From: an archaeon
GTDB lineage: Archaea > Micrarchaeota > Micrarchaeia > Anstonellales > Anstonellaceae
Length of the DNA stretch: 50,133 nucleotides
Assembly: GCA_020056305.1 (NCBI GenBank)
Contig: JAGVIA010000016.1
Coordinates: 1-50,133, forward strand
Direction: 5' to 3'
Shown: piece by piece, positions 12,913 through 48,984 of the stretch
Numbering within the stretch: position 1 is the stretch's first letter
Layout: each line of letters begins with the position of its first letter
The notes under the pieces: model-generated
Told to the model about the DNA's origin: nothing
Database searches by the model: none
The model's input: the letters and a program-made list of their open reading frames with translations, nothing else
Made by a program: the position numbers and the translations under genes

Positions 12913-13006
12913 AACTTGGCTTGGCATGCTTGCCGATATAAAACTTCTCATGCCCTGCCCAACCCCCCCAATTCGCATTAAATTCCTGCTTGCCAATTCT
13001 TTCCTC

Positions 13007-13405
13007 ATGGATGTCGTTGTCGCGCCGGACGTGCAGGAAATGCTCGAAGACATAGTGCGCACCCTCTCCTATTACGGCTACATAAACGAGCACCGCATCT
13101 TCTGCATGCGCTCAAGGGGCAACAAGGCAAACGCGTATGCGCGCATCTGGAATTTGCCTGACATCTGGCAGAAGGCCCTCGAAGTGGGCGCATTCTACAT
13201 AATCGAGGTGCTCTCCGAGCATTTCGACAAGCTCCCGGAAAAGGAAAAGAAAAAAGTGATAATACACGAGCTTCTGCACATCCCAAAAACGTTTTCCGGC
13301 GCGCTTCGCCCCCACCTGCACGCAGGCGGGCAGATAAACGAGCGAACAGTATCGAAAATCTACGAAATGTACCTTGAGGCAAAAAAGAAGATGGCGCAGG
13401 ATTGA
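13007..13405 (+). CDS. Predicted small zinc metallopeptidase (HExxH; COG4900-like)
   Basis: The internal Met gives about 132 aa with IIHELLHIP (HExxH) and a downstream H...H. The longer track ORF overlaps the divergent large gene. Confidence 0.6.
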   Translation: MDVVVAPDVQEMLEDIVRTLSYYGYINEHRIFCMRSRGNKANAYARIWNLPDIWQKALEVGAFYIIEVLSEHFDKLPEKEKKKVIIHELLHIPKTFSGALRPHLHAGGQINERTVSKIYEMYLEAKKKMAQD

Positions 13406-19921: not shown

Positions 19922-20800
19922 TCACAGCGGAATTCCTGCCTTTTCAAGCTCGCCTTTTATCTTCACGCCCGTCACTGGCGACATTATCGAATCGCTCACA
20001 ATGATGCGCTCCGCCCCTGCCTTTTGCAGCCTTTCCAACCCCTCATTCAAAAACAGCCCATGCGTCGCCCCGCACATTATCCTCTTTGCGCCCTCTTCGC
20101 GGCACTTTTCCATGGCTTTTATCATGGTGCCCCCGCCTGCAATCATGTCATCAATTATGATTATGTTCTGCGCCCAGACATTGAAATCCGCCTCAAGCTT
20201 CTCGATTTTGCGGAACGCGACATCCCCCGTTGTCTCGTATCCCCCGCGCTCCTTTTTCATGCTCATGCCACCAAAGTCCGCAACCAGGTAGCCTGCGCCC
20301 TTGTCAGGCGATATTACAACCGCATCCGGCGAGTGCTTTCTTAGCTCGGAAATAACCGCCTTGCCAAGGGAAATGTTGTTTATCTTAAGCCCCTCGCGCT
20401 CGAATCTCCCCTCCTTTTTCAGGAAGTGGCAGTCAAACGTGACAAGCTCGTCCGCCCCGGCTGTTTTGAGCAGCGCGCAAATCGTGTCAATGCTTTTTGC
20501 CTCGCCCGTGAGCCATTCCTTGTCAGCGCGCGCATAAGGGAGATATGGCACCGCAATGGTTGTCTTCTTTGCAACCTTGGACACTTCGTGCAAAATGATT
20601 GAAAGCTGGATGAGCGACTCGTTCGGGTGCGGGTAGCACCGATGCAGGATGCTCACATCTTTGCCCGCAAGCTCGCCAACAGACGGGATGCGCACATACA
20701 CCTCGCCGTCTGGAAAGCGCCTAAGCTCCACATTCGGCTTTGCGATGTCTGCGCAGTTTGGTGACACCAGTAGGAAACTTTCCATAAAATCATCGGCCAC
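19922..20800 (-). CDS. prs: Ribose-phosphate pyrophosphokinase
   Basis: The PRPP-binding loop IIIIDDMIAGGGTM and typical Prs N-domain motifs are present. The GTG start at 20800 shares 1 nt with the stop of the upstream ATPase gene (TAGTG). An alternative ATG lies at 20785. Confidence 0.9.
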   Translation of the reverse strand: MADDFMESFLLVSPNCADIAKPNVELRRFPDGEVYVRIPSVGELAGKDVSILHRCYPHPNESLIQLSIILHEVSKVAKKTTIAVPYLPYARADKEWLTGEAKSIDTICALLKTAGADELVTFDCHFLKKEGRFEREGLKINNISLGKAVISELRKHSPDAVVISPDKGAGYLVADFGGMSMKKERGGYETTGDVAFRKIEKLEADFNVWAQNIIIIDDMIAGGGTMIKAMEKCREEGAKRIMCGATHGLFLNEGLERLQKAGAERIIVSDSIMSPVTGVKIKGELEKAGIPL

Positions 20801-28410: not shown

Positions 28411-28824
28411 TCATGCAAATCCCAAATGCGATTTGTCCATCAATATTATAACCCGCACGCCTTGGTTTCGCAATATTGCCTTCAATTCCGTGTCAGTTGT
28501 GCAGACAACCGCATCCATTGCCTTTGCATTCTGCACAAACCAAACGTCTGCTGTTTTTTTCACTCCGCTTCCTTGCCCTTGTTTCTTTTTATCTTTTTCC
28601 GTCAAGATGGCTATTTTCTTTTTTTCAATGACGCCAAGCGCGCTCTTTGCGGCAATCGACCTTCTCGCATTCCCCCTTGCCATTGCCTCAAGCTCATTTA
28701 GCACCGCCTGCGGCACTGACGGCACAAATCCCTCATTCATCACGCGCGACAGCTCGGTAAAAATATCCACGCCCCGCTCAAAGGGCAGCAGGAGGAAGCT
28801 GGTGTCAAGGAGCACAAGTTTCAT
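28411..28824 (-). CDS. PIN-domain protein, Fcf1/Utp24-like (COG1412-type)
   Basis: The sequence runs MKLVLLDTSFLL ... VPQAVLNELE ... VVCTTDTELK ... The acidic PIN residues are in the expected order. The start is the internal ATG at 28824. Confidence 0.75.
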   Translation of the reverse strand: MKLVLLDTSFLLLPFERGVDIFTELSRVMNEGFVPSVPQAVLNELEAMARGNARRSIAAKSALGVIEKKKIAILTEKDKKKQGQGSGVKKTADVWFVQNAKAMDAVVCTTDTELKAILRNQGVRVIILMDKSHLGFA

Positions 28825-28888
28825 TGCCACATTCACAAATTCAATGCTTAAAAATTCGCACTCGCCACGTTTTTCCGCCACCACACAT

Positions 28889-28902
28889 TATATTTATAAA
28901 GT
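28889..28902 (+). promoter_or_regulatory. Candidate TATA box for the 28920 gene (leaderless geometry)
   Basis: The sequence ttatatttataaag is centred about 25 nt upstream of the ATG at 28920. Confidence 0.45.
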
Positions 28903-28919
28903 CTGAATGTTATAGCAAG

Positions 28920-30698
28920 ATGAGTGATATGGTGCCAAACGAAAACGCTAGCATTCCCTCTTCATTTACGCACGAAGTAAGGCAGCACATCGATTCCGCG
29001 ATAAACACAGAGAAGCGCAGCATCGAGGACCTGAAAGCCCGCATCAAGCAGCTAAGGGGATGCCAAAATCGCAAGGCAACAAAAAAAGAATCAGGCGATG
29101 CATCGAAGCAATTGGCTGCCAGCCATGCGCTAATCAAGCAGTGGAAGCATCTGGAAAAAAATCCCCTCAAATGCAAGCTGACTTTCCGCGACAGAAGCAT
29201 AGTCGGGCAGCTGGACCACGCAAACCTGCACCTTGCCAAGCAAAAAATGGGCAGAAAAGAGGCACGGAACCTCTCGGAACACCTCTGCCTCCGCATAAGC
29301 GAGCTTCCGCCCGCAGCAGCGCGGCTTGTAGAGCGGAACCTCTGGCTCACGCTTTACTCTGCAATCAAAGCAGACTGGGTGAGGGAAGACCCGCAGGGCC
29401 GCGAATTCTGGCTTCTTCGCGCCATAAGCAGGCTGGACCCGGCAAATTCGGCGATAACCGATCCGTTTGAGGCATTCCTGCGTGACGATTTTCTCGCAGT
29501 GCGCAAAGGCGGCGGCTTTGTGCATGAAGACGGCAGGATAAAAATATCGGACGCGCGCCGCGGCTTTAGCGCACGGATGATGGAGCGCTTTGTGAAATCT
29601 GGCATCTACGAGCCAACCGAAGACGACATCCACCACGTTTTCGTATCAAACCTCGACAGCGACAACCCGCAAGTGCGGATGGCATACCGTGGCATACTCG
29701 GGCACTGCGCAGTCAAATTTTCAGGCATTCTTCTTGACGAGCTACAAGGCATCAATTCCTCACGCCAGACAAGCGGCATAATGTCCGCATTTGCGTCATG
29801 CGGATGGGACGCGATACCGGACGGCAAGCGCGCAGATGCCGCGTTTGTTTTTGCAGAACTAGCAGCTAACCGCAACGTGTCTGTCTCTGCGCGTTTTGCA
29901 GAAATAGAAGCTAACCTCAACGTGCCTGTCTCTGCGCGTTTTGCAAAAATAGCAGACCGCAACGTGCCTGTCTCTGCGCGCATAGACGCAGCATTCATGC
30001 TCTCTACGCTTGACCCAAAAATGCTTGCCGCAAATGGAGAAGAAGCAAAGTCCGTAATGAGCCAGCTTGGCGAAACAGGCGCAGGCATAACTCCTGGCGG
30101 GAAGCTTGCAGAGCTTCGCGACATGTGCGCAAAGGCAGCAAGGAACCTCAACACGGACGGCGCGTTTGTGCTAAAGCACGCGCGCATATTCGACCTCAAA
30201 ACGCCCGGGCTGCAATTTATATTGCAGAACACGGACTGGCAGACATTTACTCCAGTGTCAATGGTTGAAATGCGCCTCTGGCTCTGCAATGCCCTTCTTG
30301 GTCCGAATCCGGGTGTTGTTGCAACTGCTGCAAAAATCCTTGAGGCAATAGGCCCAAACCGCACTTTTGGTGGAAAGGAAACGGGGCTTTGCATGGACGA
30401 TACAAGAATTGCCGTAACTGCGCTTGCATATCACGCGCAAGAATGGCGCTCGGACGGAAACGGCAAAGACGCAACGGAGCGCACAAGGGCAATCTCGGCG
30501 CTTGAATCGGCGCATAAAGCGCTTTCCAACCCCGAAGCCTACACTCCAGCGCATGCTGCAGTTACCTCTTCCCGCGCAATGGAGACGGCAATGCGCTTCC
30601 TTGGGCTGCGCGGCGTGAAGGAGATATTCGGGGCTGATGCTGCCGCGAAGATACAAACGAGGCATGCCAAGAAGCCTCTCCCGCAAAAAACGGGCTGA
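28920..30698 (+). CDS. Hypothetical protein with HEAT-like (D..N/P.VR/VS.R) segments and an internal tandem repeat
   Basis: 592 aa from the internal ATG, with a balanced composition. SDNPQVRMAYRGILG and three NVxVSAR(F/I) units suggest HEAT/PBS-type repeats. No family assignment is possible by eye. Confidence 0.6.
   Translation: MSDMVPNENASIPSSFTHEVRQHIDSAINTEKRSIEDLKARIKQLRGCQNRKATKKESGDASKQLAASHALIKQWKHLEKNPLKCKLTFRDRSIVGQLDHANLHLAKQKMGRKEARNLSEHLCLRISELPPAAARLVERNLWLTLYSAIKADWVREDPQGREFWLLRAISRLDPANSAITDPFEAFLRDDFLAVRKGGGFVHEDGRIKISDARRGFSARMMERFVKSGIYEPTEDDIHHVFVSNLDSDNPQVRMAYRGILGHCAVKFSGILLDELQGINSSRQTSGIMSAFASCGWDAIPDGKRADAAFVFAELAANRNVSVSARFAEIEANLNVPVSARFAKIADRNVPVSARIDAAFMLSTLDPKMLAANGEEAKSVMSQLGETGAGITPGGKLAELRDMCAKAARNLNTDGAFVLKHARIFDLKTPGLQFILQNTDWQTFTPVSMVEMRLWLCNALLGPNPGVVATAAKILEAIGPNRTFGGKETGLCMDDTRIAVTALAYHAQEWRSDGNGKDATERTRAISALESAHKALSNPEAYTPAHAAVTSSRAMETAMRFLGLRGVKEIFGADAAAKIQTRHAKKPLPQKTG
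29841..29975 (+). repeat. In-frame tandem repeat of three units (48, 45 and 42 nt)
   Basis: The units are gcgtttgtttttgcagaactagcagctaaccgcaacgtgtctgtctct, gcgcgttttgcagaaatagaagctaacctcaacgtgcctgtctct and gcgcgttttgcaaaaatagcagaccgcaacgtgcctgtctct. They encode (A)RFAEI(E)AN(R/L)NV(S/P)VS units. Confidence 0.85.
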
Positions 30699-36459: not shown

Positions 36460-36583
36460 GTATATCCGTATAGATGCCATGCATTCGGTTACTACGTCGT
36501 ATCGGGGAGCTTTTTCCCCCGATGCCGGAAAGTTCGGGAGGATTTTCCGCCGGTAGTTTCATGATAATTTGGGGGTGTCAGTT

Positions 36584-39500
36584 ATGAATTTCATGTCGAA
36601 AATGGCTGTTTTTGTGCTTGCTCTGGCAATGCTTGCGGGCGCGAATTTTGCCATGGCATACATACAAACCAACGCCACCGTCTTATCTGCGGACCGTACG
36701 GGCCTTGGATATACCAACCTCTCCACCTTCTATATAATTGAGGATATTGCAGGTCAGATAAACGTCACCAACGCCACCGCGAGAAACCTTTCAATCATCC
36801 TCCCGGTTGGATTGGAATTCAACACTGCCCTCACCGCTGGCTATATCGCGAACGTGACCACAGGCAACCTTAACTTCAGCGGCGGCTTTAACTATTCGAA
36901 CATCACGTATGTCGGCACCCGGCTGGCAATGCTTAGCAACTTTTCCGGCCCCACTGCAAATAATTCAACAATCGCCAGCCAAATCCGCATATTCGGCCTC
37001 CAGATTCGCGCCCCAGATGGAAATGGGACAGCAACAGTCACGAATCTTACAATAACCCTTAATGAGAGCATGTGGGTCTTAGGAGTCCTCGTGAACAGCA
37101 GCGTGAACATTACTAACATTTCCGTAACCAACGCAACAGTCGGAATTGTCAACATCACCCCTGGCAACTTCTCGAATGTGACATTAACACAAGTTACAAC
37201 ACTTGGATATGCTGGCTCTGCAGTCAACTTCACTGCACAGACGACAGACAGATACGGCAACACAAACGCCAGTGCATACACCCTGCGTGTCGCGTCAAAT
37301 TCAAGCAATGCAAGGTTCAGAGTCGACTCTGGTGCTTGGCTGAGCCTGCCCCAATACCTTGTAACCGCCTTGCCTAGCGGCCGCAAGATGTTCCAAATCA
37401 ATGACACCGTTAACGAAACAATAATGATATATGTAAACGGCACGAGCGGCGAAATCTTTGATTATGCAAGCGGCAACAGCTCCATGACACTATCAATCCT
37501 TACTGACAACGCCAGCATCATAAACAACCTAACTGCGGCAAACAAGACTGCGGGCACCCAATATGTCATCAGGGTCAATGTCACGGACATTTGGAATAAC
37601 GCCATAGCAGGCAAGCTCCTCAACATCTCAATCAACGGCTCAACCGCCACCGCGGCTCTTGCGAATGTGACTGGTGCCCTTGGCTTCAATTCATTCCTGT
37701 CCAACGGCACTGGTGGCGCCCCAAACGTGTCTGCCAGCACCCTCATCATAACGACGGATGCCAACGGCGTTGCAACAGCAACGCTCAACGTTTCGCAATT
37801 CGTGGGCGAAACAAACATCTCGATAAACATGACAAAAGGCGATGGCGGCGATAGCGTCTATAACTGGTCCCTAGTAACCATCAACAGCACTGACACCGAG
37901 GTGCCCTATCTTGTCACTGCCACCAATCTTGTCGCCGGCCAGTGGATTAAGGGCACATACAACCTCACTGGCAATGCGAGCGACAATGTCCGCGTGGGAA
38001 ATGTGACAATAAACATGAGCAACCTTTGGTCGTTTCCTGCAAACATCACATGGAACGGCTCGGACAACCGCGGCCAGAACATAAACTGGTCATACCTCAT
38101 TAACACGTCTCTTTTTGCAGATTCCGCCACGCTGCCAATAATAGTCAACGCATCAGACTCCAGCGGCAACCAGAATGTTTCGCTGATTGGAACACTGAGC
38201 ATTGACAACACCGTGCCCAACGTAAGTTATTATAACCGGGTCGGCGCGGCAGTCTCAAGCAACACCACTATTATGTACACGAATGCCAACCTCACAAACT
38301 ACATGGCAATCCTGATACTGGATCCGTCTTCGGGCGTGAACTCGTCAGGCGCCACTGCCTACTTGAGCTCGATAAACATCTCCTTCAACACCACTGGCGC
38401 ATACAACTACAGCATAACGAGCAACGCGGCAAACACCAGCCTCAACGTCACCATCAACGTGACCTTCCCGGTCACCGGCCTCTATGTAATGAACATGAAC
38501 ATAACCGACAACGCCGGCAACACGAACAGGACCCAGCGTTACTTCTACGTGGACATGGTTCCGCCGTTTGAGATAAACTTCACGAACATGGCGGCAATAA
38601 ACAACACTGCCGGGCTTGGGTTAAACATTACCAACGAAGCGAACATCACCATCGACCTGTCAATACAGGATGCGGTGAACATGTCAAACGAGACCGACAC
38701 CCTCAACGTCATAATACAGGTGAACAACAAGACGTCCGGCACCACTGCCTGCAACTTCTCAGCAATGAATGAGTTTGAGGTTGGCATAGTGAACGCATCC
38801 TGCGCGTTCAACATGTCCGGCGTCAACACGAACGGCGGCATCTACCAGATAAGCGCAATCGCATTTGACAGGGCGAACAACTCGCTTGTCGGCGTGCGCA
38901 TACTGGCAACCGGCAGCGCATACGCAGCCGCAACCGCTGCCAACCCGGTCAACATCTCAGGAAGCAGGGTGCAGATACTGGGCGCCAACACAACAGGCCT
39001 TGGCGGCGGCACGGTTTACATCAACCTGACCGTCAACTCAACATCTACTGCGTCACTGCCAAACATCCTGCGCAAGAAGTACCTGCTGAACTCGAGCCTT
39101 GCGGACAACTCGTTCCTGTTCAACATATCGTTCGCATACACGGCAAGCGAGCTTACCGAGCTTGGGATTTCGGATGAAAGCATGCTCGTGCCCATGTTCT
39201 ACAACACCACGTCAGCCAGATGGGAGCGCGTGCCCGGCTATGTCAACACCACCGACTTCACCGGCACTGACGCGCAGGGCAACAGCGTCGCATACGCAGG
39301 CAAGATAGTGATGACCAACCTCAAGCACTTCACCGAGTTCAGCGGCTTGGCAGGCGTTGAGGCAAACGTCACAAACTGCTCGGCAACGTATGGCAACGTG
39401 AGCAACTTTGTTGTGAACGGCACAGGGACAGTAGCGGGCATCGAGCACTGTGTGCTTGCATTCACCCTCTACAACCCGCTCAACCACGGCGTCAACCTGA

Positions 39501-41059
39501 CATGGGTGAACATCACGCTTGTCAACCTCTCTGTGGCAGACACGAATAACATCACAAACGTCACCCTCTACAATGATACCACATACCTAAACGGCACATT
39601 CGGCTACGGCCTGTTCGGCGCAGCAGTGACTGCCAACTTCTCAATAGACCCGGGCACGGTCGCAGGCGCCATAATACCGGCGGCAAGCTCCCGTACCTTC
39701 TATGTCAAATACAACATCAATCTCACTGCAACCGACAACAAGACTCTTGGCGCAATAATAGGCATCGGAGGGCTCAACATAACCAATGCCTCGGTGCCAG
39801 TAACCTTAAACGGCACCCTTGACGGATTGCGCAACGTTTCAACCGACATGTTCGCGCCGGTGTTCTTCAACAACGTCTCCACGAGCTGGAGAAACGTTTC
39901 CCAGTACGTCGGCGTAAACGTTTCGGACCTGCTGGCGCGCCAGAATGTCACAAGCGCAACCTACTGCACAGCCAGCAACGGAAACGGAAGCGGCGGAAGC
40001 TGCAACGCGTCAGCTGGCGCATCGTTCATAATTAACACTGCCTCGGGCTGCAACGGCCTTTCTGGCACATGCGCCAACGGCACGCTGGTGCTCAACCTGA
40101 CAAGCTCGGGCAACATCACGGTGAACATCACGGCAGTCGATTCGGCAGGCAACCGAAATAACTCGGTATTCTTCGTGCTTGTCGACCTCTCGGCACCGGA
40201 CATCACCAACCTCACGCCCGGTGACAACGCCATCGTGAACTCCTCGCCAACCGTTAACGCGCTGGCAACGGACACGGTGTCCGGCATTGCGAACCTTACC
40301 CTATACATAAACGGCTCGCAGGCAGGCAACAAGACCAACCTGTACAACGTGTCAGCCGCAGCTGGGGTTAACATCTTCAACTTTACCACGCTTGCAGGAG
40401 GCACGCACAACATAAGCCTTATCGCAGAGAATGGCGCAGGCAGCAGAACCAACCGAAGCTGGTCGTTCACAGTGAACGGCTCGTTTAGCCTCTGGGTGGT
40501 GATTGACCTCGCCTCGGGCTTCAACCTGATTGCGATACCGATGAACGTCACCAACAACTCGGTGAAGTCGGTGGTCTCGGGCATAAACGACAGCCTGGTG
40601 AATGTCTGGCACTATGACCCGACAAACGGCTACGTGGTGTACAACACCAACCAGAGCGTGCCCAACACCCTGACAAGCATCATACCGGGGCAGGCATACT
40701 TCCTGAACATGTCTGCGCCTGCCAACCTTACCATATACGGCTTCACGCCGAGCTTGGGCAGCGCGCCTGACTACCCGACAAGGGCGGCGTTCAGCCTCAT
40801 TGTTGGCTGGAACATGGTGGGCGCATTCATAAATGCAACAAACCCTGCCAACGGGTCTGCAATGGTGAACTCCTGCATGATGTTCAGGGACATAGGAGGC
40901 AGCACCCTCGTGACCGGGCTGACGGGCTACAACTCGTCAATGGGCTACTACAGTGTCATACAGTCGTCATCCCCCTGCCCGTCGTCGTCGCCGAACCTCG
41001 TGCAGGGCTGGGGCTACTGGACATACGCCAGCTCAGCAGGCACATACTACCAATACTAA
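36584..41059 (+). CDS. Giant secreted protein saturated with N-glycosylation sequons (candidate S-layer or outer surface-lattice protein)
   Basis: An ATG at 36584 follows an SD. The signal peptide is MNFMSKMAVFVLALAMLAGANFAMA. The protein is about 1491 aa with roughly 130 N-x-S/T sequons by my own eye count. It has no C-terminal TM segment and ends in an aromatic-rich motif (WGYWTYASSAGTYYQY). Confidence 0.8.
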   Translation: MNFMSKMAVFVLALAMLAGANFAMAYIQTNATVLSADRTGLGYTNLSTFYIIEDIAGQINVTNATARNLSIILPVGLEFNTALTAGYIANVTTGNLNFSGGFNYSNITYVGTRLAMLSNFSGPTANNSTIASQIRIFGLQIRAPDGNGTATVTNLTITLNESMWVLGVLVNSSVNITNISVTNATVGIVNITPGNFSNVTLTQVTTLGYAGSAVNFTAQTTDRYGNTNASAYTLRVASNSSNARFRVDSGAWLSLPQYLVTALPSGRKMFQINDTVNETIMIYVNGTSGEIFDYASGNSSMTLSILTDNASIINNLTAANKTAGTQYVIRVNVTDIWNNAIAGKLLNISINGSTATAALANVTGALGFNSFLSNGTGGAPNVSASTLIITTDANGVATATLNVSQFVGETNISINMTKGDGGDSVYNWSLVTINSTDTEVPYLVTATNLVAGQWIKGTYNLTGNASDNVRVGNVTINMSNLWSFPANITWNGSDNRGQNINWSYLINTSLFADSATLPIIVNASDSSGNQNVSLIGTLSIDNTVPNVSYYNRVGAAVSSNTTIMYTNANLTNYMAILILDPSSGVNSSGATAYLSSINISFNTTGAYNYSITSNAANTSLNVTINVTFPVTGLYVMNMNITDNAGNTNRTQRYFYVDMVPPFEINFTNMAAINNTAGLGLNITNEANITIDLSIQDAVNMSNETDTLNVIIQVNNKTSGTTACNFSAMNEFEVGIVNASCAFNMSGVNTNGGIYQISAIAFDRANNSLVGVRILATGSAYAAATAANPVNISGSRVQILGANTTGLGGGTVYINLTVNSTSTASLPNILRKKYLLNSSLADNSFLFNISFAYTASELTELGISDESMLVPMFYNTTSARWERVPGYVNTTDFTGTDAQGNSVAYAGKIVMTNLKHFTEFSGLAGVEANVTNCSATYGNVSNFVVNGTGTVAGIEHCVLAFTLYNPLNHGVNLTWVNITLVNLSVADTNNITNVTLYNDTTYLNGTFGYGLFGAAVTANFSIDPGTVAGAIIPAASSRTFYVKYNINLTATDNKTLGAIIGIGGLNITNASVPVTLNGTLDGLRNVSTDMFAPVFFNNVSTSWRNVSQYVGVNVSDLLARQNVTSATYCTASNGNGSGGSCNASAGASFIINTASGCNGLSGTCANGTLVLNLTSSGNITVNITAVDSAGNRNNSVFFVLVDLSAPDITNLTPGDNAIVNSSPTVNALATDTVSGIANLTLYINGSQAGNKTNLYNVSAAAGVNIFNFTTLAGGTHNISLIAENGAGSRTNRSWSFTVNGSFSLWVVIDLASGFNLIAIPMNVTNNSVKSVVSGINDSLVNVWHYDPTNGYVVYNTNQSVPNTLTSIIPGQAYFLNMSAPANLTIYGFTPSLGSAPDYPTRAAFSLIVGWNMVGAFINATNPANGSAMVNSCMMFRDIGGSTLVTGLTGYNSSMGYYSVIQSSSPCPSSSPNLVQGWGYWTYASSAGTYYQY

Positions 41060-41092: not shown

Positions 41093-41116
41093 ATGTTCCA
41101 TCTGGAGGTGCGATTA

Positions 41117-42403
41117 ATGCGATTGAATATTTTGGCTCTTTTGCTGCTTTCCCTTGCGGCAGTTTCATTTGCACAGGCAGCACTGCCACAAAGCCACTAT
41201 TTCTTTGGCAACATAACCGCCGACACCGGCGTCAGCATGCTGGGGCAGACTCTCACTGCGACAGTGGGCGCAACATCCACGACCGCAACGACGGCAGTGA
41301 CAACTGCGCCTGACGGCACAACATACAACTACAACGTCATGGTCAACCGCGCACCCGGCGACACTACAAATACTACGGTTCTCTTCTCGATAAACAGCTA
41401 CAATTTCATGAACAGCACGTTTGTGCATTTAGGCAGGACGCACCTTAACGGCCAGTTCCCGGCTGCGCAGCTTCCGGTTACCCCCACACCATCAACTCCA
41501 CCTGGCACCGGCGGCAGCACTGGCGGCTCAAGCGGCACCGGCTCTGGCGGGGGCGCGGCAGGCGGCGCTGGCGCAACGGGCAGCGGCTCATCAGCAAACA
41601 CTGTTTCAGTTGACATTGGCGGCGGCACAAGCTGCAACATCTCCGTTACCCGCGAGATAAACAGCGGCTCAGGCAGGACCGAGCTGACTACGACGCTGCA
41701 GAACAACGGCGGGGGCGCCTGCACCATTTCCGCATTTGACATTGCGGACACGTTCCCGGAGAACTTCACGACCGACCTGTCTGAAGTCAATTTCTCAATA
41801 AATCCGGCATCCAAGTCCGGCCAGATCGCAACCTGGCGTTTCTACCAATTCCGCCCGGGCGAGTCAATCATACTCATCTACACCTTCCCGCGCGAGATAG
41901 CCCCGGCAAAGATACGCGAGTGGGGCCTTCCAACAATAACCCTGCAGGCTGGCGTCGCGCCCGAGGGCGGCATTGTGACGCTTGATGTGGCATCGACCGG
42001 AGTCATCGGCATGCCAATCACAATAACGGTAAAGAAGGGCGGCGTGCCCCTTGCAGGCGCAACAATCGAGATTACCACGCCCCAGCGCCAGAAAATCACC
42101 CTTGTGGCAGGTCCTGACGGCACTGTTTCATTCACGCCAACTCTTGCTGGCACATACACCTATGCAGTGCCTGGCTACACGCTTGCTGCAGCTGTTTCTA
42201 CATCTGTTTTGACAGAGGCTGCGCCGCCGCCAACACCAGCCCCAACCCCAGGTCCAACCCAGCTGCCTCCGGAGCAGCCTCCTGCGCCGGCGCAAGGCTT
42301 CCCCTGGCTCACAATAGTGCTTGTTGTGGCAGGCATTGCAGTAATAGGCGCGGTTGCCTGGGCAGCGCTTGTCTACTTCAAGGGCAGGAAAAAGGGCATC
42401 TAA
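41117..42403 (+). CDS. Secreted protein with a P/T/G/S linker, a beta-sandwich-like domain and a C-terminal TM anchor (candidate membrane stalk partner)
   Basis: A ggaggtg SD lies upstream of the ATG at 41117. The signal peptide is MRLNILALLLLSLAAVSFAQA. The linker is PVTPTPSTPPGTGGSTGGSSGTGSGGGAAGGAGATGSGSS. A CarboxypepD_reg-like segment (GVPLAGATIEITTP...GPDGTVSFTPTLAGTYTY) is present. The C-terminus is WLTIVLVVAGIAVIGAVAWAALVYFKGRKKGI. Confidence 0.75.
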   Translation: MRLNILALLLLSLAAVSFAQAALPQSHYFFGNITADTGVSMLGQTLTATVGATSTTATTAVTTAPDGTTYNYNVMVNRAPGDTTNTTVLFSINSYNFMNSTFVHLGRTHLNGQFPAAQLPVTPTPSTPPGTGGSTGGSSGTGSGGGAAGGAGATGSGSSANTVSVDIGGGTSCNISVTREINSGSGRTELTTTLQNNGGGACTISAFDIADTFPENFTTDLSEVNFSINPASKSGQIATWRFYQFRPGESIILIYTFPREIAPAKIREWGLPTITLQAGVAPEGGIVTLDVASTGVIGMPITITVKKGGVPLAGATIEITTPQRQKITLVAGPDGTVSFTPTLAGTYTYAVPGYTLAAAVSTSVLTEAAPPPTPAPTPGPTQLPPEQPPAPAQGFPWLTIVLVVAGIAVIGAVAWAALVYFKGRKKGI

Positions 42404-42408
42404 GCGCC

Positions 42409-42429
42409 CTTCCTTTTTTATTTTAATTC
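42409..42429 (+). terminator. T-rich tract after the 41117 gene, followed by a 9-bp hairpin
   Basis: The tract reads cttcctttttta ttttaattc. A hairpin follows: attccgcat-(13 nt)-atgcggaat (42425-42455). Confidence 0.4.
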
Positions 42430-42496
42430 CGCATAGCGCAAGCAATAATGCGGAATGCCAAGAAGCAATAAAAAGGCGAATCCCAAATCAATATCC

Positions 42497-43663
42497 ATGC
42501 GGCATTTTCCAATCGCGCTCTCAATCGCATTTCTCTGCCTGCCCATTTTCGCGTCAGCAGAATATGACGGCGTCGCAGGGGCCCTCATTTTCCAGATGCT
42601 CCTGCCAAACGAGACATTCTCATATTCCAATTTCACAGAGGGCGAAGTTGCCTACTACCTGGTCAGCATAGGCGGCACTGAGCGCTTTTTGGTGCGCGTA
42701 GGGCCCGTCCCGCCTGAGGGAAGGGGGCAGCCGCTGCTTGCCGCAGAGCCGGTCCTCGAAGCCTCCTCTGCTGTTGCGGCGCTGAAAAAAATACGCTGGC
42801 AAAACGGCTCCAATCTCTCAGAGCTTGACAAGCTCGAATCAATACACCTGCTAATAGCGGCGTTCGAGTCCTCCCGCACTCCAGGCGAGCACAAGTGCGA
42901 CATCCTGATTGGAATGGACGAGCACCACTGCATCGACTTTGAGTCGTGCCAGAAATCCTGCTACAGCCGCACGTCATTTTGCCAGCCCCTTGCCCTTGGC
43001 ATCGGAAGGCCGCTAATCGAGGCGATGTTTGACTACTCCAACGGCACCAAGAATCTCACACTGCTTCTTGCAGAGGAGGACGCCCGCCATGCCGCCCTCT
43101 CCTCGCAAAGAACAGCCCAGAACCTTGATGACTACCTATCCACTCTCACTGCAATAAATGTGCAGGCGACGAAAATAAACAACAACATGGTCTTTTACGG
43201 CTACCAGATATGCTTCCCTCCAAACTATGACATGGCATCGCTTACGCGCGCCAAGCTTGAGCTGCTTTCAATCTACGCAAAGGCAATACCAATCCTGCGG
43301 GCTGACGAGGAGGGCAGGCAGATGGCTGAATCTGCAAGCTCCCGCTATCGGGCCGGTGGCGAGCGCAATGTTGTGCCAGAAAAGCAAACTGCGCCCCAAA
43401 TTCCAAACGGCGGCGGAACGAATGGCACAAACGTTTCCATCAACGCATCTGAAAACAAAACAATTGCCAATGGCATCCCAAGCACGGCTGGCGTTCCCTC
43501 CAATGCAATGGCGCCAGGCGCCTCTTCGGCTTCCAGCGGCGCGCAAAGCCAGCTTATACTGATTTCGGCTGCGCTAGTGCTTGCACTGCTAGGCGCGGCG
43601 TATTTCCTTGTTGCCAAAAAGAAAAGCAAAAGCGCAAAGCAAGAAATGCCAAAGAAGAAATAA
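42497..43663 (+). CDS. Secreted, C-terminally anchored Cys-motif protein; paralogue B of the 35274 gene
   Basis: It has a signal-like MRHFPIALSIAFLCLPIFASA and the block KCDILIGMDEHHCIDFESCQKSCYSRTSFCQPLALGIGRPLI. A C-terminal TM segment and a Lys-rich tail are present. Confidence 0.7.
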   Translation: MRHFPIALSIAFLCLPIFASAEYDGVAGALIFQMLLPNETFSYSNFTEGEVAYYLVSIGGTERFLVRVGPVPPEGRGQPLLAAEPVLEASSAVAALKKIRWQNGSNLSELDKLESIHLLIAAFESSRTPGEHKCDILIGMDEHHCIDFESCQKSCYSRTSFCQPLALGIGRPLIEAMFDYSNGTKNLTLLLAEEDARHAALSSQRTAQNLDDYLSTLTAINVQATKINNNMVFYGYQICFPPNYDMASLTRAKLELLSIYAKAIPILRADEEGRQMAESASSRYRAGGERNVVPEKQTAPQIPNGGGTNGTNVSINASENKTIANGIPSTAGVPSNAMAPGASSASSGAQSQLILISAALVLALLGAAYFLVAKKKSKSAKQEMPKKK

Positions 43664-43765: not shown

Positions 43766-46270
43766 ATGGCAAAAATACGCACCGGGATAATAGGCGTCGG
43801 CAACTGCTTTGCAGGGCTTGCGCAGGGAATCGAATTCTACAAGAGGCAGCCGGAAAAGAAAGTGGTCGGGCTGATGCACGAGAAAATAGGCGGCTATTCC
43901 TGGGAAGACCTGGAATTCTCCTGCGCGTTCGACGTTGGCAAGTCAAAGGTCGGCCTGCCCCTGCACAAGGCGATATACGCCGAGCCAAACCTGGTTTTCT
44001 GGCTAAAGGATCTTCCAAAGTCAGACACCATTGTGATGGAAGCCCCGGTGCTTGACGGCGTTGGCATCTGGGTGCAGAACAAGGTGGACCCGATTAAAAG
44101 CAAAAAAACAGACGCGCAGCTCCGCAAGGAGATAATTGCCGAAATAAAGCGCACGAAGACCGAAATACTTGTCAATTACCTGCCTGTCGGCTCGCAGAAA
44201 TCCACGGAGTTCTGGGCGCAAATTGCCCTTGAATGCGGCTGCGCGTTTGTGAACTGCATCCCGGTTTTCATCGCAAGCGATGCGGCATGGGAAGCCAAAT
44301 TCAAAAAAGCAGGAGTGCCACTTATCGGCGACGACATAAAGGCTCAGGTGGGCGCAACAATAGTGCACCGCACGCTCGCAAGATTGTGCGACGACAGGGG
44401 AGCAAGAATAATTAAAACATACCAAATTAACATTGGCGGAAACAGCGTTGCCGGCGACCAGGAAATACTGCTGGTGCAAAATGGAAAACTCGCGCGGGCA
44501 AGAATAGGCGATTTTGTGGACAGAATGATGGCGGTATACGGCCAACGCAGGGCGGATGGGAAGGAAGAAGTCGACACGTCTGCAACGGGCCAAAAGATTG
44601 AGTGCTTTACCATAGATGAAAATTTCAACGCGGTCACTGCGGAAGTCTCTCACCTCGTAAGGCATTCGCTGAACAATGAACTCTACGAAATCGAAACTAG
44701 CGAAGGAAGGAAAATCAAGATAACCGCAGACCACAACGTGTTTGTCCTAAATGAAGATGGCGGGCTTCTGGAAGCCCCCATCTCAAAGCTCAAAGAAAAG
44801 GAAAGCATGATAGCCGTGCCCTGCCGCCTGCCAATGCAAATGGGGCGCGAGCCTGTCTCAATCAGCCTGCTTCCATACGCAAAAGACCTGTTTGCTCAGG
44901 GCATAGACTCAAACGGCAACATCAAAGTCCACAACCATCCGGAAATGAAAATACCAATGGAGCTTCAAATAACCGACGAGCTTCTCCAGATAAGCGGGCT
45001 TTGGCTTGCAGACGGCAGCTTTGACCGCGAAGGCTCAAGCAACTTGGAGATTGCCTGCGGAAACGACGAAGAGTGCATGGATTTGATAGATGATTTTGCA
45101 TCTGCGTACAACATCAACTACCAAGTAAGGGGGCAAAAGCAGGTTGCAGTGCGCCTGATGTCAAAAACCATGTCAAAAATATTCCGCCTGGCGCTGGGAT
45201 TAGGCGGCAATTCCTACACCAAGCGCGTGCCAGACTGGTTCTTCAGCCTATCCGAGAGGCATATCGCACTTGTGCTTCGCGGCTACATGAGCGGCGATGG
45301 CACCGTAACCGGCAGGCAGATTCGCTGGACAACCGCATCCGAGGGCCTGGCAGAGGACATGCGCACGCTCCTTCTGCGCCTGGGCATAAACTCCTCAACA
45401 TTCAGAGAGGATTACTCGCACAAGGCAGGCAAAAGCTCATACAAGACAAACCTGCCATACATAACGCACGGCATAATATCCTCGAAAGAGGATGCGGAAA
45501 GATTCATCGAGAAGGTAGGTTTCATCCAGTCCAGCAAAAACCAGAAAGCGCTTGCAGCTGCGGCCACGCTCACAAAGGGCAATACGCATCTCATCCCCGC
45601 AATAGGGCTTCTCTCGGAATCCGGCATAAAATCTTCAAATCCGCATAACCCGCCATCGCTGCGCGCGCATACTGTCCTCTCCCAACTGGACGGGGTGCAG
45701 GACTTGAACACCAAGGGCAAAATAAGGAACATGTGCAACGCAGACACGCGCTTTCTAAAGATAAAATCCATTCGCAGGCTTCCCCCCAAGCAGCAGTATG
45801 TCTACGATCTGTCCGTGCCCGGCTACCAGCGCTTTGTCTGCTCAAACATCCTTGTGCACAATACCGATTTCCTCAACATGAAGGAGCAGGAGCGGCTTGC
45901 CTCAAAGCGCATAAGCAAAACCGAATCAGTGCAAAGCCAGCTGCGCGAGCGCCTTCCGCCTGAAAACATCTACATAGGCCCGTCTGATTTCATCCCTTTT
46001 TTGGGCAACACAAAAATAATGTTCATGAGGATAGAAGGCCACATGTGGGCTGACATCCCGTTCAACATGGAAGTGCGCCTTGAAGTGGATGACAAGGCGA
46101 ATTCAGCTGGCGTTGTCATTGATGCTGTGCGCTGCGCAAAGCTTGCCTTGGAGCGAAAGCAGGGCGGCGCAATCATCCCGACCTCTGCATATTTCATGAA
46201 GCACCCGCCGGTGCAGATGACCGACCCAAAAGCAATGGAAGAGACGGAGAAATTCATAATGGGGAAATAG
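43766..46270 (+). CDS. myo-Inositol-1-phosphate synthase (archaeal short type) interrupted by an intein
   Basis: The N-extein is MAKIRTGIIGVGNCFAGLAQGIEFY...YQINIGGN. The C-extein is TDFLNMKEQERLASKRISKTESVQS... The exteins sum to 361 aa, a normal length for archaeal MIPS. Confidence 0.85.
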   Translation: MAKIRTGIIGVGNCFAGLAQGIEFYKRQPEKKVVGLMHEKIGGYSWEDLEFSCAFDVGKSKVGLPLHKAIYAEPNLVFWLKDLPKSDTIVMEAPVLDGVGIWVQNKVDPIKSKKTDAQLRKEIIAEIKRTKTEILVNYLPVGSQKSTEFWAQIALECGCAFVNCIPVFIASDAAWEAKFKKAGVPLIGDDIKAQVGATIVHRTLARLCDDRGARIIKTYQINIGGNSVAGDQEILLVQNGKLARARIGDFVDRMMAVYGQRRADGKEEVDTSATGQKIECFTIDENFNAVTAEVSHLVRHSLNNELYEIETSEGRKIKITADHNVFVLNEDGGLLEAPISKLKEKESMIAVPCRLPMQMGREPVSISLLPYAKDLFAQGIDSNGNIKVHNHPEMKIPMELQITDELLQISGLWLADGSFDREGSSNLEIACGNDEECMDLIDDFASAYNINYQVRGQKQVAVRLMSKTMSKIFRLALGLGGNSYTKRVPDWFFSLSERHIALVLRGYMSGDGTVTGRQIRWTTASEGLAEDMRTLLLRLGINSSTFREDYSHKAGKSSYKTNLPYITHGIISSKEDAERFIEKVGFIQSSKNQKALAAAATLTKGNTHLIPAIGLLSESGIKSSNPHNPPSLRAHTVLSQLDGVQDLNTKGKIRNMCNADTRFLKIKSIRRLPPKQQYVYDLSVPGYQRFVCSNILVHNTDFLNMKEQERLASKRISKTESVQSQLRERLPPENIYIGPSDFIPFLGNTKIMFMRIEGHMWADIPFNMEVRLEVDDKANSAGVVIDAVRCAKLALERKQGGAIIPTSAYFMKHPPVQMTDPKAMEETEKFIMGK
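44444..45862 (+). mobile_element. Intein (473 aa) with a LAGLIDADG-type homing-endonuclease domain
   Basis: It starts with Ser (SVAGDQEILLV, block A). Block B is a TxxH (KITADHNVFV). Two LAGLIDADG-like motifs are present (GLWLADGSF and RGYMSGDGTV). It ends VYDLSVPGYQRFVCSNILVHN, followed by Thr at +1. Confidence 0.85.
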
Positions 46271-46347
46271 GGAATGCGGCGCCAAATGGAAAATGTGCAG
46301 CCGGACGAGACTGGCAATAATCCGCCCTGCTGCTTTGCGTGATAAAC

Positions 46348-46947
46348 ATGCTCAAGGAAAAATTCTCTGGATTGCAATCAAGCGCAGGAAAAGCACTATC
46401 TTTCCTGCCTTTTACGCCAAACCAGCTCACTGCAATTTCCGTCCTCTTTGCAATCGCCTGTTTTTTCTTCCTTGCAACCCAGCAACTTATCCTTGCCATC
46501 ATCTGTTTCCTTGCAGCAGTTCTCCTTGACATGATAGATGGTGCAATCGCGCGCGAAAAGAAGATGGCAAGCGCAAAAGGCGCCTTTCTTGACGGCGTAG
46601 CGGACCGCCTCGTGGAGTTTTTCGTGCTATTCGGGCTTGTTTTTTACGATTTGCCAAATTTCATTCTGCCCGCATTTCTCTGGCTCTTTGTAATCGTATT
46701 TTTCGGAAGCGCAATGACCGCCTTTTGCAAGGCGTATGCGGATCATCGCGGCGCGCTCTCAAAGGAAAAGCTTGCGCGCTTTGGGGGGATGTTCAACCGG
46801 CCTGAGCGCATGGCAATGATTTTCCTCGTGCTTCTTGCCGCAGGCTTCATGCCCGCAGCTGCAACGGCGCTTCTTGCAATAACGGCGGCGCTCTCAGTGA
46901 TGTCAGTTGCTGAAATTATTCTATATGTTTGGATTTCGTCGGAATGA
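46348..46947 (+). CDS. CDP-alcohol phosphatidyltransferase; probable archaetidylinositol-phosphate synthase
   Basis: The motif DMIDGAIAR-x8-GAFLDGVADR is the D-G-x2-A-R...G-x3-D-x3-D signature. It is a multi-pass membrane protein and lies directly downstream of MIPS. The start is ATG 46348; the track uses GTG 46339. Confidence 0.8.
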   Translation: MLKEKFSGLQSSAGKALSFLPFTPNQLTAISVLFAIACFFFLATQQLILAIICFLAAVLLDMIDGAIAREKKMASAKGAFLDGVADRLVEFFVLFGLVFYDLPNFILPAFLWLFVIVFFGSAMTAFCKAYADHRGALSKEKLARFGGMFNRPERMAMIFLVLLAAGFMPAAATALLAITAALSVMSVAEIILYVWISSE

Positions 46948-47436: not shown

Positions 47437-48984
47437 TTATCCAGCCTGCTTGTAAAGAAGGCCTCTTCCTTTTTGCGTAAGGCGGTAAAATACGAATTTC
47501 TTGCCCGGCTCCTCCATGCGCTCAACAAGCCCGGCATCAATGAGCTTGTCAAGGTGCTCAACAATAGTCGCCTTGCTCCGCTTCAGCCTCCTGCTCAAGT
47601 CTGTTGGTATCTTTTCGCTTTGCACAAGCTCGTTTAGTATGCCAAGCCTAGTCTCGTTCATGAGCATGCGCGTGGACTCCACCTGCTCGGCAGCAGGCGC
47701 GCGGAACATGAGCACCGCAATCAGTGCAAGCGCAATTGCAAATACTGCGATAACTGGCGCAATAATCGCCAGCGGAAACTCATCCTTTTTCTGCCCAGAA
47801 GCTGCATCGGCAGCGCTTTTGTCAGCCATGCCAAATGCAGGCACGCCTAACTTCTCCGAGCCCACATCCCCTGTTTCCTGCGCAGGCTGCGGAGCCCGTG
47901 CAGGCGTTTCCACCTGCGGCACTGCACCAGTGCCTGACCGGAACCCGCTGTCGGAAAACAACACCGAGCCGTCCGTCGCATCAATGACAACGCGCGCGTC
48001 AATAGGCCTGTAGCGCTCGCCTTGATAATTGCCCTTTTGGCCGAACACCCATGCAAGCCTCATCCTGCCATTTTGGTAATCATACCAGTATGCAAGCACC
48101 GAATCCATGCCGGCTGCATCAAAATAGCCCCCCCATTCTGATGCGCTGCCTATGGCTGTAAGCCTTGCATTGCCCTCTGCAATGGCAGGCGTTGTCCCAA
48201 GCAGCGCAAAATCAAAGTATCTGGCACTGTCGCATTGGCTCTTTGCAATTCCCTGCGGCACTACCAGATAGCATAGCCCCTGCATTTTTCCATTAAGGAA
48301 ATGTGCCTTTGCCTCGTACATCAGAATCGGGATGCCCTTGTATTGTTGGGCAAAGAAAACAGTTGACACTTCCCGCCCGCTGCAGTTCTCGTACCTCACT
48401 CCGCTCACTTCAGTTGAAAGCCCGTTTCCAGAAAGGTTTGAAATTGAAAATCCGTTCGGGTTGAGCAACCCCTCAACAAACGAGATTTTGTTGCCAGCCG
48501 GGAGCGTTGAATCGCATACGGCGGGTTTGGGCGGCGTTGCCGAAGACGCATCAAGGCAGTTGCCAACAATTGAGAAATTGGGCGCGTTATCTATGTGCAT
48601 CCACGAAAGCGGAAACACGAATTCTTGTTCTGGCGAATTAAGCTCAACAGACCTGTAATAGGTATCCGGGGTCCTGTAATTAGTCACATTCCAAACCTCA
48701 ATCTGCTTCTGGCCATAGGCTAGGTCGAATACGGCATTTCCATCAACTGCTGTTTTGGCGTTCCTAGTTCCAAGAAGACGCCCATCAGCAGCTTCTGTGA
48801 CCTTTACATCTGCGTTTGCTATGCACTGGCCTGTGGAATTGTCAATTACCCTTACAACGAGTGTTCCATGCAAAGACGGAGGTGGCGCGTCTTCACTCCC
48901 GTTTCCTTCCACCAGCTGTGCCGTTGCTGCTTGCAGCATGAGCAGCATGCTAAGAAAAATCACGAGGAGGTCTCTTTTTACCAT
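47437..48984 (-). CDS. Single-pass membrane protein with an extracytoplasmic domain and a cytoplasmic C-terminal ArsR-like wHTH
   Basis: The signal peptide is MVKRDLLVIFLSMLLMLQAATAQ. A CarboxypepD_reg-like segment (GTLVVRVIDNSTGQCIANADVKVTE...DGNAVFDL) is present. The TM segment is LAIIAPVIAVFAIALALIAVLMF. It is followed by ETRLGILNELVQSEKIPTDLSRRLKRSKATIVEHLDKLIDAGLVERMEEPGKKFVFYRLT. Confidence 0.75.
   Translation of the reverse strand: MVKRDLLVIFLSMLLMLQAATAQLVEGNGSEDAPPPSLHGTLVVRVIDNSTGQCIANADVKVTEAADGRLLGTRNAKTAVDGNAVFDLAYGQKQIEVWNVTNYRTPDTYYRSVELNSPEQEFVFPLSWMHIDNAPNFSIVGNCLDASSATPPKPAVCDSTLPAGNKISFVEGLLNPNGFSISNLSGNGLSTEVSGVRYENCSGREVSTVFFAQQYKGIPILMYEAKAHFLNGKMQGLCYLVVPQGIAKSQCDSARYFDFALLGTTPAIAEGNARLTAIGSASEWGGYFDAAGMDSVLAYWYDYQNGRMRLAWVFGQKGNYQGERYRPIDARVVIDATDGSVLFSDSGFRSGTGAVPQVETPARAPQPAQETGDVGSEKLGVPAFGMADKSAADAASGQKKDEFPLAIIAPVIAVFAIALALIAVLMFRAPAAEQVESTRMLMNETRLGILNELVQSEKIPTDLSRRLKRSKATIVEHLDKLIDAGLVERMEEPGKKFVFYRLTQKGRGLLYKQAG

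Follow-up and report, generated by a model that had tools for sequence, protein, structure and literature searches.

The question raised by this locus is whether a gene for the synthase of myo-inositol-1-phosphate (MIPS), broken within its catalytic site by 473 codons, can still yield an enzyme, and what kind of element the inserted segment is. The window (the whole stretch of 50,133 nucleotides that was analyzed) derives from an uncultured Micrarchaeota-like DPANN archaeon, and a single MIPS gene was seen within it, at 43766..46270 of the forward strand. Sequence and predicted structure together point to the insert being a real class 1 homing intein, probably active, which resides in a new host protein and would rely on an ordinary mechanism.

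The interrupted MIPS gene and its exteins

The gene comprises 834 codons in an intact frame, followed by a TAG stop. The original prediction had read it as a short MIPS of 361 aa split by 473 aa at 44444..45862, and both the coordinates and the junction match exactly. The N-extein (43766..44443, +) corresponds to MIPS residues 1-226, forms the NAD-binding part and ends in YQINIGGN, the first half of catalytic Block D. The C-extein (45863..46270, +) covers residues 227-361 of the spliced protein, beginning with Thr+1 (TDFLNMKEQERLASKRISK...) and closing with the TAG stop. Rejoined without the insert, the exteins form a 361-aa MIPS that matched M. tuberculosis Ino1 (1gr0) with E 4.4e-99 (phmmer), aligning to chain residues 15-233 and 233-367, respectively, with a gapless junction at GGN/MDF (here and below the slash marks the insertion point). 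The junction was also gapless against 120 intein-free MIPS (GGNTDFL in 110, GGNSDFL in 7), which is the clean rejoining that the intein reading had called for. Pfam Inos-1-P_synth (PF01658) is split at the insertion point into two stretches in the precursor, whereas it matches the rejoined extein without interruption (E=9.9e-32), and the spliced MIPS scored 109.8 bits (cutoff 27). The equivalog model TIGR03450, whose matching stretch in the N-extein spans residues 4-226, gave the precursor 360 bits, below its 638-bit cutoff, so the host is a member of the MIPS family and not a strict equivalog of TIGR03450.

The insertion site GGN/TDF lies within Block D, which comes first among the conserved blocks of the catalytic site and in which Mt N229-vg-G232-N233-m-D235 corresponds to Sc N350-hl-G353-N354-n-D356, and Sc D356 contacts NADH (PMC5614600). 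By this correspondence, the intein sits between the equivalents of N354 and N355, two residues ahead of the NADH-contacting Asp. The Block D table of the same paper thereby agrees with the earlier proposal that GGN/TDF is the equivalent of the NHLGNNDG-type motif. Roles of the catalytic residues have been described for Blocks A-D of MIPS (N..GN.D in Block D, SK...K in Block C, a Lys in Block B and an Asp in Block A; PMC5614600). In the alignment to 1gr0, the extein segments QINIGGN/TD, ASKRISK, NTK and EVDD align with Mt N229/G232/N233/D235, S247/K248/K252, K284 and D310. Judging from these alignments, the spliced extein is a normal short prokaryotic-type MIPS, and its enzyme activity is predicted. 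Both 1gr0 and the Micrarchaeota MIPS P0121-P0134 resemble the window extein and lack the 473-aa insert.

A co-oriented gene for a CDP-alcohol phosphatidyltransferase lies downstream, outside the intein (46339..46947, +; Pfam PF01066, 2.3e-18). Its best match was archaetidylinositol phosphate synthase (NCBIfam NF040950, 9e-32, below the curated cutoff), a user of the MIPS product, and the MIPS-transferase pair was also found in intein-free relatives. Neither tRNA genes nor Rfam matches were detected in the window.

Splicing elements, endonuclease domain and proposed mechanism

The insert (44444..45862, +; precursor aa 227-699) has the layout of a class 1 intein, running from Ser1 to a terminal His-Asn with Thr at +1, and all of the hallmarks listed in the original prediction were present as described. 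Its N-terminal splicing region (44444..44833, +; 3' boundary approximate) is an all-beta segment in the structure model, matched by NCBIfam intein_Nterm on intein residues 2-101. Within it, block A (44444..44485, +) reads SVAGDQEILLVQNG, in which Ser1 opens SVAGDQEILL, and block B (44705..44743, +) reads GRKIKITADHNVF, with the TxxH motif ITADH (Thr320 and His323 in precursor numbering). The LAGLIDADG homing endonuclease domain (44963..45535, +; boundaries approximate) is supported by Pfam LAGLIDADG matches and by the model, where helices alternate with strands. It carries two motifs, each ending in an acidic residue: motif 1 (44981..45028, +), LLQISGLWLADGSFDR, contains GLWLADGS (ADG, Asp416), and motif 2 (45263..45307, +), IALVLRGYMSGDGTV, contains GYMSGDGT (GDG, Asp511). 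In the C-terminal splicing region (45743..45862, +; 5' boundary approximate), the Pfam Intein_splicing match reaches insert residue 473. Blocks F and G (45797..45862, +) read YVYDLSVPGYQRFVCSNILVHN and are followed by TDF, with a penultimate His698, a terminal Asn699 and Thr+1 at 45863.

Profile searches bore out both parts of this architecture. The insert matched Pfam Intein_splicing (E=1.8e-26; PF14890, 93 bits, cutoff 35.8) and NCBIfam intein_Nterm (E=1.5e-9, exceeding the cutoff; TIGR01445, 38.7 bits, cutoff 24.5). The endonuclease matched LAGLIDADG_3 over intein residues 274-359 (E=2.9e-20; PF14528, 72.7 bits, cutoff 22.5), with weaker Pfam matches to LAGLIDADG_WhiA and LAGLIDADG_2 over residues 183-248. 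As sequence matches, these are far beyond chance. Thus the insert combines Ser1, the block B TxxH, His-Asn with Thr+1, the Hint sequence and fold, and a host that is gapless after removal. One feature counts against the reading of a canonical active class 1 intein: many inteins carry a His in block F, where the window intein has a Gln (YQRF) and its relatives a Glu.

An AlphaFold model of the precursor reached a mean pLDDT of 85.5, with very low confidence only at the two junctions (223-225 and 702-710) and high confidence in the endonuclease region. The top Foldseek match was the TliVMA intein (7qss, E 3.8e-27, TM by target 0.78). Further matches comprised I-DmoI and intein structures including mini-inteins at an rmsd of about 2 A, and M. 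tuberculosis MIPS 1gr0 was recovered as a separate match (TM 0.89 by target). Among the solved archaeal inteins, TliVMA/PhoVMA (7qss, 7qst), PI-PkoII (2cw7) and PI-PfuI (1dq3) have the same Hint domain split by a two-motif LAGLIDADG endonuclease, and they matched the MIPS intein with Foldseek E values from 3.8e-27 to 8.3e-24 and TM by target of 0.64-0.79. PI-PkoII was also matched by phmmer (4.3e-16). Identity in the structural alignments was just 16-18%, and these inteins reside in V-ATPase subunit A and DNA polymerase B, whereas the host of the MIPS intein is a metabolic enzyme.

Each step of the mechanism that we propose is derived from the conserved residues and established intein chemistry. 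The 834-aa precursor would be translated with Block D (N..GGN/TD) interrupted by 473 residues and, with Block D broken, should be inactive. Aided by Thr and His of block B, Ser1 would then undergo an N-O acyl shift, and Thr+1 would attack the resulting ester (transesterification). Cyclization of Asn699, helped by the penultimate His698, would release the intein, and an O-N shift would leave a normal peptide bond in a 361-aa MIPS (...YQINIGGNTDFLNMK...), identical at this place to intein-free alleles. The mature MIPS would supply the archaetidylinositol-phosphate synthase encoded downstream. The excised intein would act as a site-specific endonuclease cutting intein-free MIPS genes around the sequence encoding QINVGGN/TDFLNM, and repair of the cut allele by recombination would copy the intein in (homing). 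We consider it highly likely that the insert is a canonical class 1 intein with a double-motif LAGLIDADG homing endonuclease, placed in frame in MIPS, which would both splice and home.

Two further candidates in the window were discarded. Nothing supports the ORFs antisense to the intein (44021..44734, -, for example), which are mechanical ORFs. A tblastn search of the window with the intein, aimed at a second related intein, returned a sole weak match (30045..30230, E 0.03), which was rejected because the ORF containing it (28824..30698) has no Pfam intein match.

Relatives at the same site and signs of mobility

Inteins at the same MIPS site were found in 68 protein clusters and 25 genome loci, distributed among Micrarchaeota, Aenigmatarchaeota, Iainarchaeum, Altiarchaeales, Hadarchaeum and Hodarchaeaceae. 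Across the aligned set, in which overall identity falls to 43%, Ser227, Thr320 and His323 were present in 69 of 69 sequences, and His698 and Asn699 in all 68 that cover the region. Asp681 was invariant, and the +1 residue was Thr in 67 of the sequences covering it and Ser in 1. Such invariance wherever covered, despite this divergence, indicates that the splicing residues are under selection. Likewise, the motif aspartates were nearly always kept (Asp416 in 67/69, Asp511 in 68/69), indicating that the endonuclease is under selection as well.

These data bear on the reading in which the insert does not splice and the MIPS gene is dead, whether as a pseudogene or as an assembly chimera. The intact 834-codon frame, the retention of the MIPS catalytic residues in the exteins and the conserved pairing with the downstream transferase all argue against it. 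So do the splicing residues: all of them are present, and their conservation extends over 68 independent clusters, which come from many samples and sources. We give this reading a practically negligible probability and regard it as effectively refuted already.

Cys280 and Cys692 (precursor numbering) were also invariant and Cys657 nearly so, though the nucleophiles are Ser and Thr. This would suit a co-opted intein acting as a conditional switch, through which the environment (redox, temperature, metal ions) gates splicing and inositol-lipid synthesis. The enzyme whose catalytic block is broken by the insertion carries out the first committed step towards inositol lipids, the intein is retained across several phyla, and regulatory roles of inteins are discussed in the literature (PMC4760082, PMC10663303). 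In its specific form, the MIPS intein would be a post-translational gate in DPANN and some other archaea with Cys280/Cys692 as a redox or metal sensor, and such a gate would account for the retention across phyla. However, the distribution is patchy and the closest relatives have intein-free alleles, a pattern more in keeping with a selfish element than with a regulator that is needed. A conditional switch thus seems highly improbable to us, and the cysteine-based gate very doubtful.

The homing intein that we favor is expected to meet empty target alleles, and these were found among the closest relatives of the host. The nearest exteins were intein-free (P0121, P0122 and P0123, with 91%, 80% and 79% identity, respectively), versus 78.7% for the best intein-containing extein, and P0121 and P0122 share the gene order of the window. 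A candidate intein-free target site was taken from L044/L045 (P0122), where the DNA of L044 reads TACCAAATCAACGTGGGGGGCAAC/ACGGATTTCCTTAACATGAAG and the site around the insertion point ...AACGTGGGGGGCAAC/ACGGATTTCCTTAAC.... On an extein tree of 186 tips, the presence or absence of the intein changed at least 18 times; the tree was a quick NJ reconstruction without support values and its intein-free set is biased to relatives of the window, which makes this a rough count. Intein and extein identities were weakly coupled (Spearman 0.32), as illustrated by P0022/P0058 (extein 56%, intein 75%) and P0008/P0038 (extein 82%, intein 44%). The intein-free targets and the sporadic distribution are consistent with homing, and relatives whose endonuclease is deleted (L025, L033) or mutated (L043) represent later stages of the homing cycle at this site. 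Homing would explain the occurrence at a single site, the patchiness among close relatives and the presence in several archaeal phyla.

It could be asked whether splicing is intact and the endonuclease has become inactive in this lineage, leaving a fixed passenger that is inherited vertically and has reached a late phase of the homing cycle. The G+C of the intein (0.49-0.55) is no different from that of the flanks, with no step at its borders, so its composition shows no sign of a recent arrival in the genome. Its nearest relative, P0001, is only 80% identical, so homing could be old and the endonuclease out of use. Degenerate or endonuclease-deleted versions at the same site (L025, L033, L043/P0038, P0028 and P0047) demonstrate that decay does occur in this family: the core of the endonuclease is deleted in different ways in L025 (295 aa) and L033 (255 aa), and L043 (= P0038) has an Asp to Asn change in motif 1. 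However, the window copy has its full length of 473 aa, with both LAGLIDADG motifs and their aspartates, the conserved Lys486 and a confidently modelled endonuclease region. Moreover, the sister allele P0121 is without the intein at 91% extein identity, which points to a fairly recent gain or loss. An inactive passenger is therefore an unlikely alternative. The closest DNA pair available for endonuclease dN/dS has about 67% protein identity, at which synonymous sites would saturate.

The host protein in the context of known inteins

Outside MIPS, the nearest sequence relatives were inteins located in T2SSE/PilB-like ATPases of uncultured archaea (P0241-P0255), with 28-36% identity, in some cases over all 473 aa. 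They share with the MIPS intein a Ser start (mostly SVxGD, one SIxGD), an (I/V)(C/A)xN..xHN end and Thr+1 in all. For this reason the Ser1/Thr+1 pair, which the original prediction had singled out as less common, is present but not special here. The T2SSE/PilB-like inteins differ in host and insertion site (e.g., VED/S...HN/TPE), several of their hosts bear two or three inteins, and their scores stay at or below 271 bits versus 556 bits for the MIPS-intein representative. An archaeal membrane-lipid enzyme is also represented among LAGLIDADG intein hosts by the tetraether lipid synthase Tes (NCBIfam NF045703). The similarity of its intein to that of MIPS (E 6.8e-18) is confined to the endonuclease domain, its host is a radical SAM protein, and both insertion site and allele differ. 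In viral_contigs scanned with the intein profile, we found no MIPS intein and nothing above 28% identity.

According to PMC4760082, COG categories L and F account for about 75% of archaeal intein hosts. Within the one literature library searched in full text, no description of a MIPS intein was retrieved, and the main text of the Novikova 2016 intein survey does not mention inositol. The claim that a lipid or osmolyte-pathway host is unusual thus holds for this literature and is weakened by three facts: 68 clusters carry the allele, the JGI pipeline auto-labels some of them 'myo-inositol-1-phosphate synthase/intein/homing endonuclease', and the Tes intein is also curated. The host gene is the sole new aspect of this intein, which changes nothing in the understanding of intein mechanism.

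The MIPS intein adds a lipid/osmolyte-pathway host to a list in which proteins of replication, repair and nucleotide metabolism prevail, and bears on whether the host bias of inteins reflects function or merely the sampling of cultured organisms. A single site here displays all stages of the homing cycle, with empty alleles, full inteins, point-mutated motifs and two independent endonuclease deletions. There are also practical aspects: L025 and L033 are natural Ser1/Thr+1 mini-inteins (cysteine-free nucleophile) that could interest protein engineers, and the endonuclease could represent a new rare-cutting specificity. Several NCBI-named homologs are entered as 'LAGLIDADG family homing endonuclease' or as 'hypothetical protein' instead of MIPS, and through such names the capacity for inositol-lipid synthesis in DPANN, Hadarchaeota and Hodarchaeales can be missed.

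The intein and its place in the host enzyme

The precursor of MIPS (myo-inositol-1-phosphate synthase) is encoded by a single long ORF of 834 codons plus a TAG stop (43766-46270, forward strand). Its translation, searched for the strings quoted in the original prediction, placed the insert exactly where it had been predicted, at 44444-45862 (forward strand; precursor residues 227-699, 473 aa), leaving 361 aa once the insert is removed. All the predicted hallmarks were located: Ser1 in SVAGDQEILL, block B GRKIKITADHNVF, two LAGLIDADG motifs on the forward strand (LLQISGLWLADGSFDR, 44981-45028, and IALVLRGYMSGDGTV, 45263-45307) and the C-terminal end YVYDLSVPGYQRFVCSNILVHN followed by Thr. Profile scans of the insert alone, proposed as a check, matched Pfam Intein_splicing (E 1.8e-26, 93 bits versus a cutoff of 35.8), Pfam LAGLIDADG_3 (E 2.9e-20) and NCBIfam intein_Nterm (exceeding its cutoff), as well as the intein portions of many NCBIfam models of intein-containing proteins (among them RNA polymerase A'', DnaB, Tes and PolII). 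The finding of an intein in MIPS is correct.

The host protein belongs to the short prokaryotic type of MIPS. The Pfam Inos-1-P_synth profile matched the precursor in two stretches, whereas the rejoined extein gave one continuous match (E 9.9e-32), and a PDB search aligned the precursor with 1gr0, the intein-free Mycobacterium tuberculosis (Mt) Ino1, as two segments (residues 15-233 and 233-367 of the chain; E 4.4e-99). At the junction GGN|MDF no residue was lost or gained, giving the clean, gapless junction expected of an intein. The catalytic residues tabulated in PMC5614600 are aligned in the window protein and 1gr0 (Mt N229/G232/N233/D235, S247/K248/K252, K284 and D310). According to the same source, MIPS Block D (ixsyNhlGNnDg) comes first among the conserved blocks of the catalytic site, Mt N229-vg-G232-N233-m-D235 corresponds to Sc N350-hl-G353-N354-n-D356, and D356 contacts NADH. 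The intein therefore lies between the equivalents of N354 and N355, two residues ahead of the NADH-contacting Asp, and the equivalence claimed with the NHLGNNDG motif holds. From this position within Block D, the unspliced precursor would be inactive.

Modelled with AlphaFold from a 37-sequence homolog alignment, the full precursor had a mean pLDDT of 85.5, and very low confidence was confined to residues 223-225 and 702-710, one stretch at each splice junction. The first matches of this model in a Foldseek search of the PDB were the full-length intein endonucleases TliVMA (7qss; E 3.8e-27, TM by target 0.78), PI-PkoII (2cw7) and PI-PfuI (1dq3). The separate match to 1gr0 (TM by target 0.89) indicates a predicted structure in which both extein halves come together as a MIPS fold around the intein. 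In the 37-sequence alignment, Cys280 (44601-44603) and Cys692 (45837-45839) are invariant and Cys657 (45732-45734) almost so, even though Ser and Thr serve as the splicing nucleophiles; these cysteines could pair structurally, or make up a site for redox chemistry or metal binding. Block F of the window intein reads YQRF (45821-45832), with Gln where most MIPS-intein relatives have Glu (YERF); many inteins have His in this block.

Judging from these residues, splicing would follow the standard class 1 pathway: an N-O acyl shift at Ser1 helped by Thr320 and His323 of block B, transesterification by Thr+1, cyclisation of Asn699 helped by His698, and an O-N shift yielding ...IGGN-TDF.... The freed intein would then cleave empty alleles around TACCAAATCAACGTGGGGGGCAAC|ACGGATTTCCTTAACATGAAG, a sequence read from the intein-free MIPS loci L044 and L045. 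While the predicted mechanism is canonical, the host protein and the insertion site are new. MIPS had been proposed as an unusual host, and full-text literature searches retrieved no paper describing a MIPS intein, nor is one mentioned in the main text of a broad survey (PMC4760082); the allele itself, however, is already present in public databases, partly auto-annotated (JGI).

Relatives at the same site and beyond MIPS

Searching with the full precursor recovered 68 clusters (43-79% identity, practically full coverage), all combining PF01658, PF14890 and PF14528, and several bearing the JGI pipeline label 'myo-inositol-1-phosphate synthase/intein/homing endonuclease'. Their source names included Bilamarchaeaceae (placed within Micrarchaeia by NCBI taxonomy), Micrarchaeia, Aenigmarchaeota, Altiarchaeales, Hadarchaeum and Hodarchaeaceae; the named exteins nearest to that of the window were from Bilamarchaeaceae, Anstonellales and Micrarchaeota. 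The most likely source of the window is a Micrarchaeota-like DPANN archaeon, which suits its many large ORFs lacking Pfam matches. A MAFFT alignment placed the insert at the identical position in every cluster, with Ser1 and the block B Thr and His conserved in 69/69 sequences, His-Asn in 68/68, and a +1 residue that was Thr in 67 and Ser in one. A profile of the intein alone, run against a single genome for each GTDB species, yielded 43 loci, of which one in a Micrarchaeota MAG matched the window intein best (L001, 67%). MIPS exteins flanked the intein in 25 of these loci, from Micrarchaeota, Aenigmatarchaeota, Iainarchaeum, Altiarchaeales, Hadarchaeum (including H. yellowstonense YNP_45) and Hodarchaeaceae. 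Two MIPS-intein contigs were binned as bacterial (L033, 'Patescibacteria group bacterium', and L016, 'bacterium') and carry an archaeal-type MIPS; intein-free MIPS labelled Patescibacteria (P0183 and P0224) share 67% identity with the window extein. Either mis-binning or DPANN-CPR transfer of MIPS would account for these assignments.

When the intein alone was searched exhaustively with HMMER against 1.84 billion cluster representatives, one MIPS-intein representative was returned (P0027, 556 bits), and the matches after it scored at most 271 bits. The next of these (P0241-P0255, 28-36% identity) were inteins within T2SSE/PilB-like ATPases of 1000-2100 aa, several of which contain two or three inteins; the two largest checked (P0241 and P0243) had three Intein_splicing stretches each. 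As in the MIPS intein, Ser is their first residue (within SVxGD in most, SIxGD in one) and HN|T forms the C-terminal junction in all of them; the Ser1/Thr+1 chemistry therefore characterises a wider intein clade and is no peculiarity of the MIPS allele. No close relative of the MIPS intein was found in a viral contig collection (best match 28%).

Gene neighbourhood of the window MIPS

Downstream of MIPS lies a CDP-alcohol phosphatidyltransferase (46339-46947) whose best NCBIfam match, below its cutoff, was archaetidylinositol phosphate synthase (E 9e-32). Most plausibly, MIPS provides inositol phosphate for inositol phospholipids. Many bacterial MIPS homologs (among P0069-P0091, P0116 and P0120) carry fused NTP-transferase domains (PF00483, PF12804), and P0116 and P0120 a fused CDP-alcohol phosphatidyltransferase (PF01066); these fusions join consecutive steps of inositol-phosphate use. 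A 515-aa protein on the reverse strand (47437-48984) combines a C-terminal ArsR/MarR-type winged-helix domain, an N-terminal CarboxypepD_reg-like match and hydrophobic stretches around residues 10-20 and 400-420, and is a possible membrane-tethered regulator of the operon. Intein-free relatives have a smaller HTH protein at this position, beside the MIPS-transferase pair. Three large ORFs (1496 aa, 36569-41059, forward; 1397 aa, 8869-13062, reverse; 827 aa, 20800-23283, reverse) and two directly upstream of MIPS (436 and 402 aa, 41093-43663, forward), the 402-aa one Asn/Ser/Ala-rich with a C-terminal hydrophobic stretch, had no Pfam match and are probably lineage-specific surface proteins. No other inteins, tRNA genes or Rfam matches were found within the window.

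Evidence for mobility of the MIPS intein

Intein-free MIPS were the closest relatives of the spliced extein (P0121, P0122 and P0123; 91%, 80% and 79% identity), ahead of the best intein-containing homologs (P0002, 78.7%; P0001, 77.8%). The P0121 and P0122 loci share the window gene order (unknown gene, MIPS, CDP-alcohol phosphatidyltransferase), followed in P0122 loci, as in the window, by an HTH protein on the opposite strand. A quick NJ tree covering 186 exteins placed P0121 as sister to the window extein and required at least 18 changes of intein presence. Intein and extein pairwise identities correlated weakly (Spearman 0.32), with strong outliers in both directions (P0022/P0058, extein 56% and intein 75%; P0008/P0038, extein 82% and intein 44%).

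The LAGLIDADG aspartates are retained in 67/69 and 68/69 sequences, and one is substituted in each of P0028 and P0047. Two natural mini-inteins occupy the same MIPS site, one of 295 aa in an Aenigmatarchaeota (3001-3885 of L025) and one of 255 aa (1619-2383 of L033); their deletions differ in end points, and both lack the LAGLIDADG core and retain all splicing blocks (Ser1, TxxH, HN|T). The 436-aa intein of L043 (3001-4308; the locus of P0038) retains its LAGLIDADG domain, but in motif 1 an Asp is replaced by Asn, in motif 2 a Gly by Val, and 47 aa are deleted as well. These sequence patterns point to an endonuclease that is under selection and has decayed in places, and to an intein that is, or recently was, mobile. 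By analogy with known homing endonuclease genes, the empty alleles, patchiness, incongruence and decayed copies would be the stages expected in a homing cycle, of which the MIPS inteins provide a good natural series.
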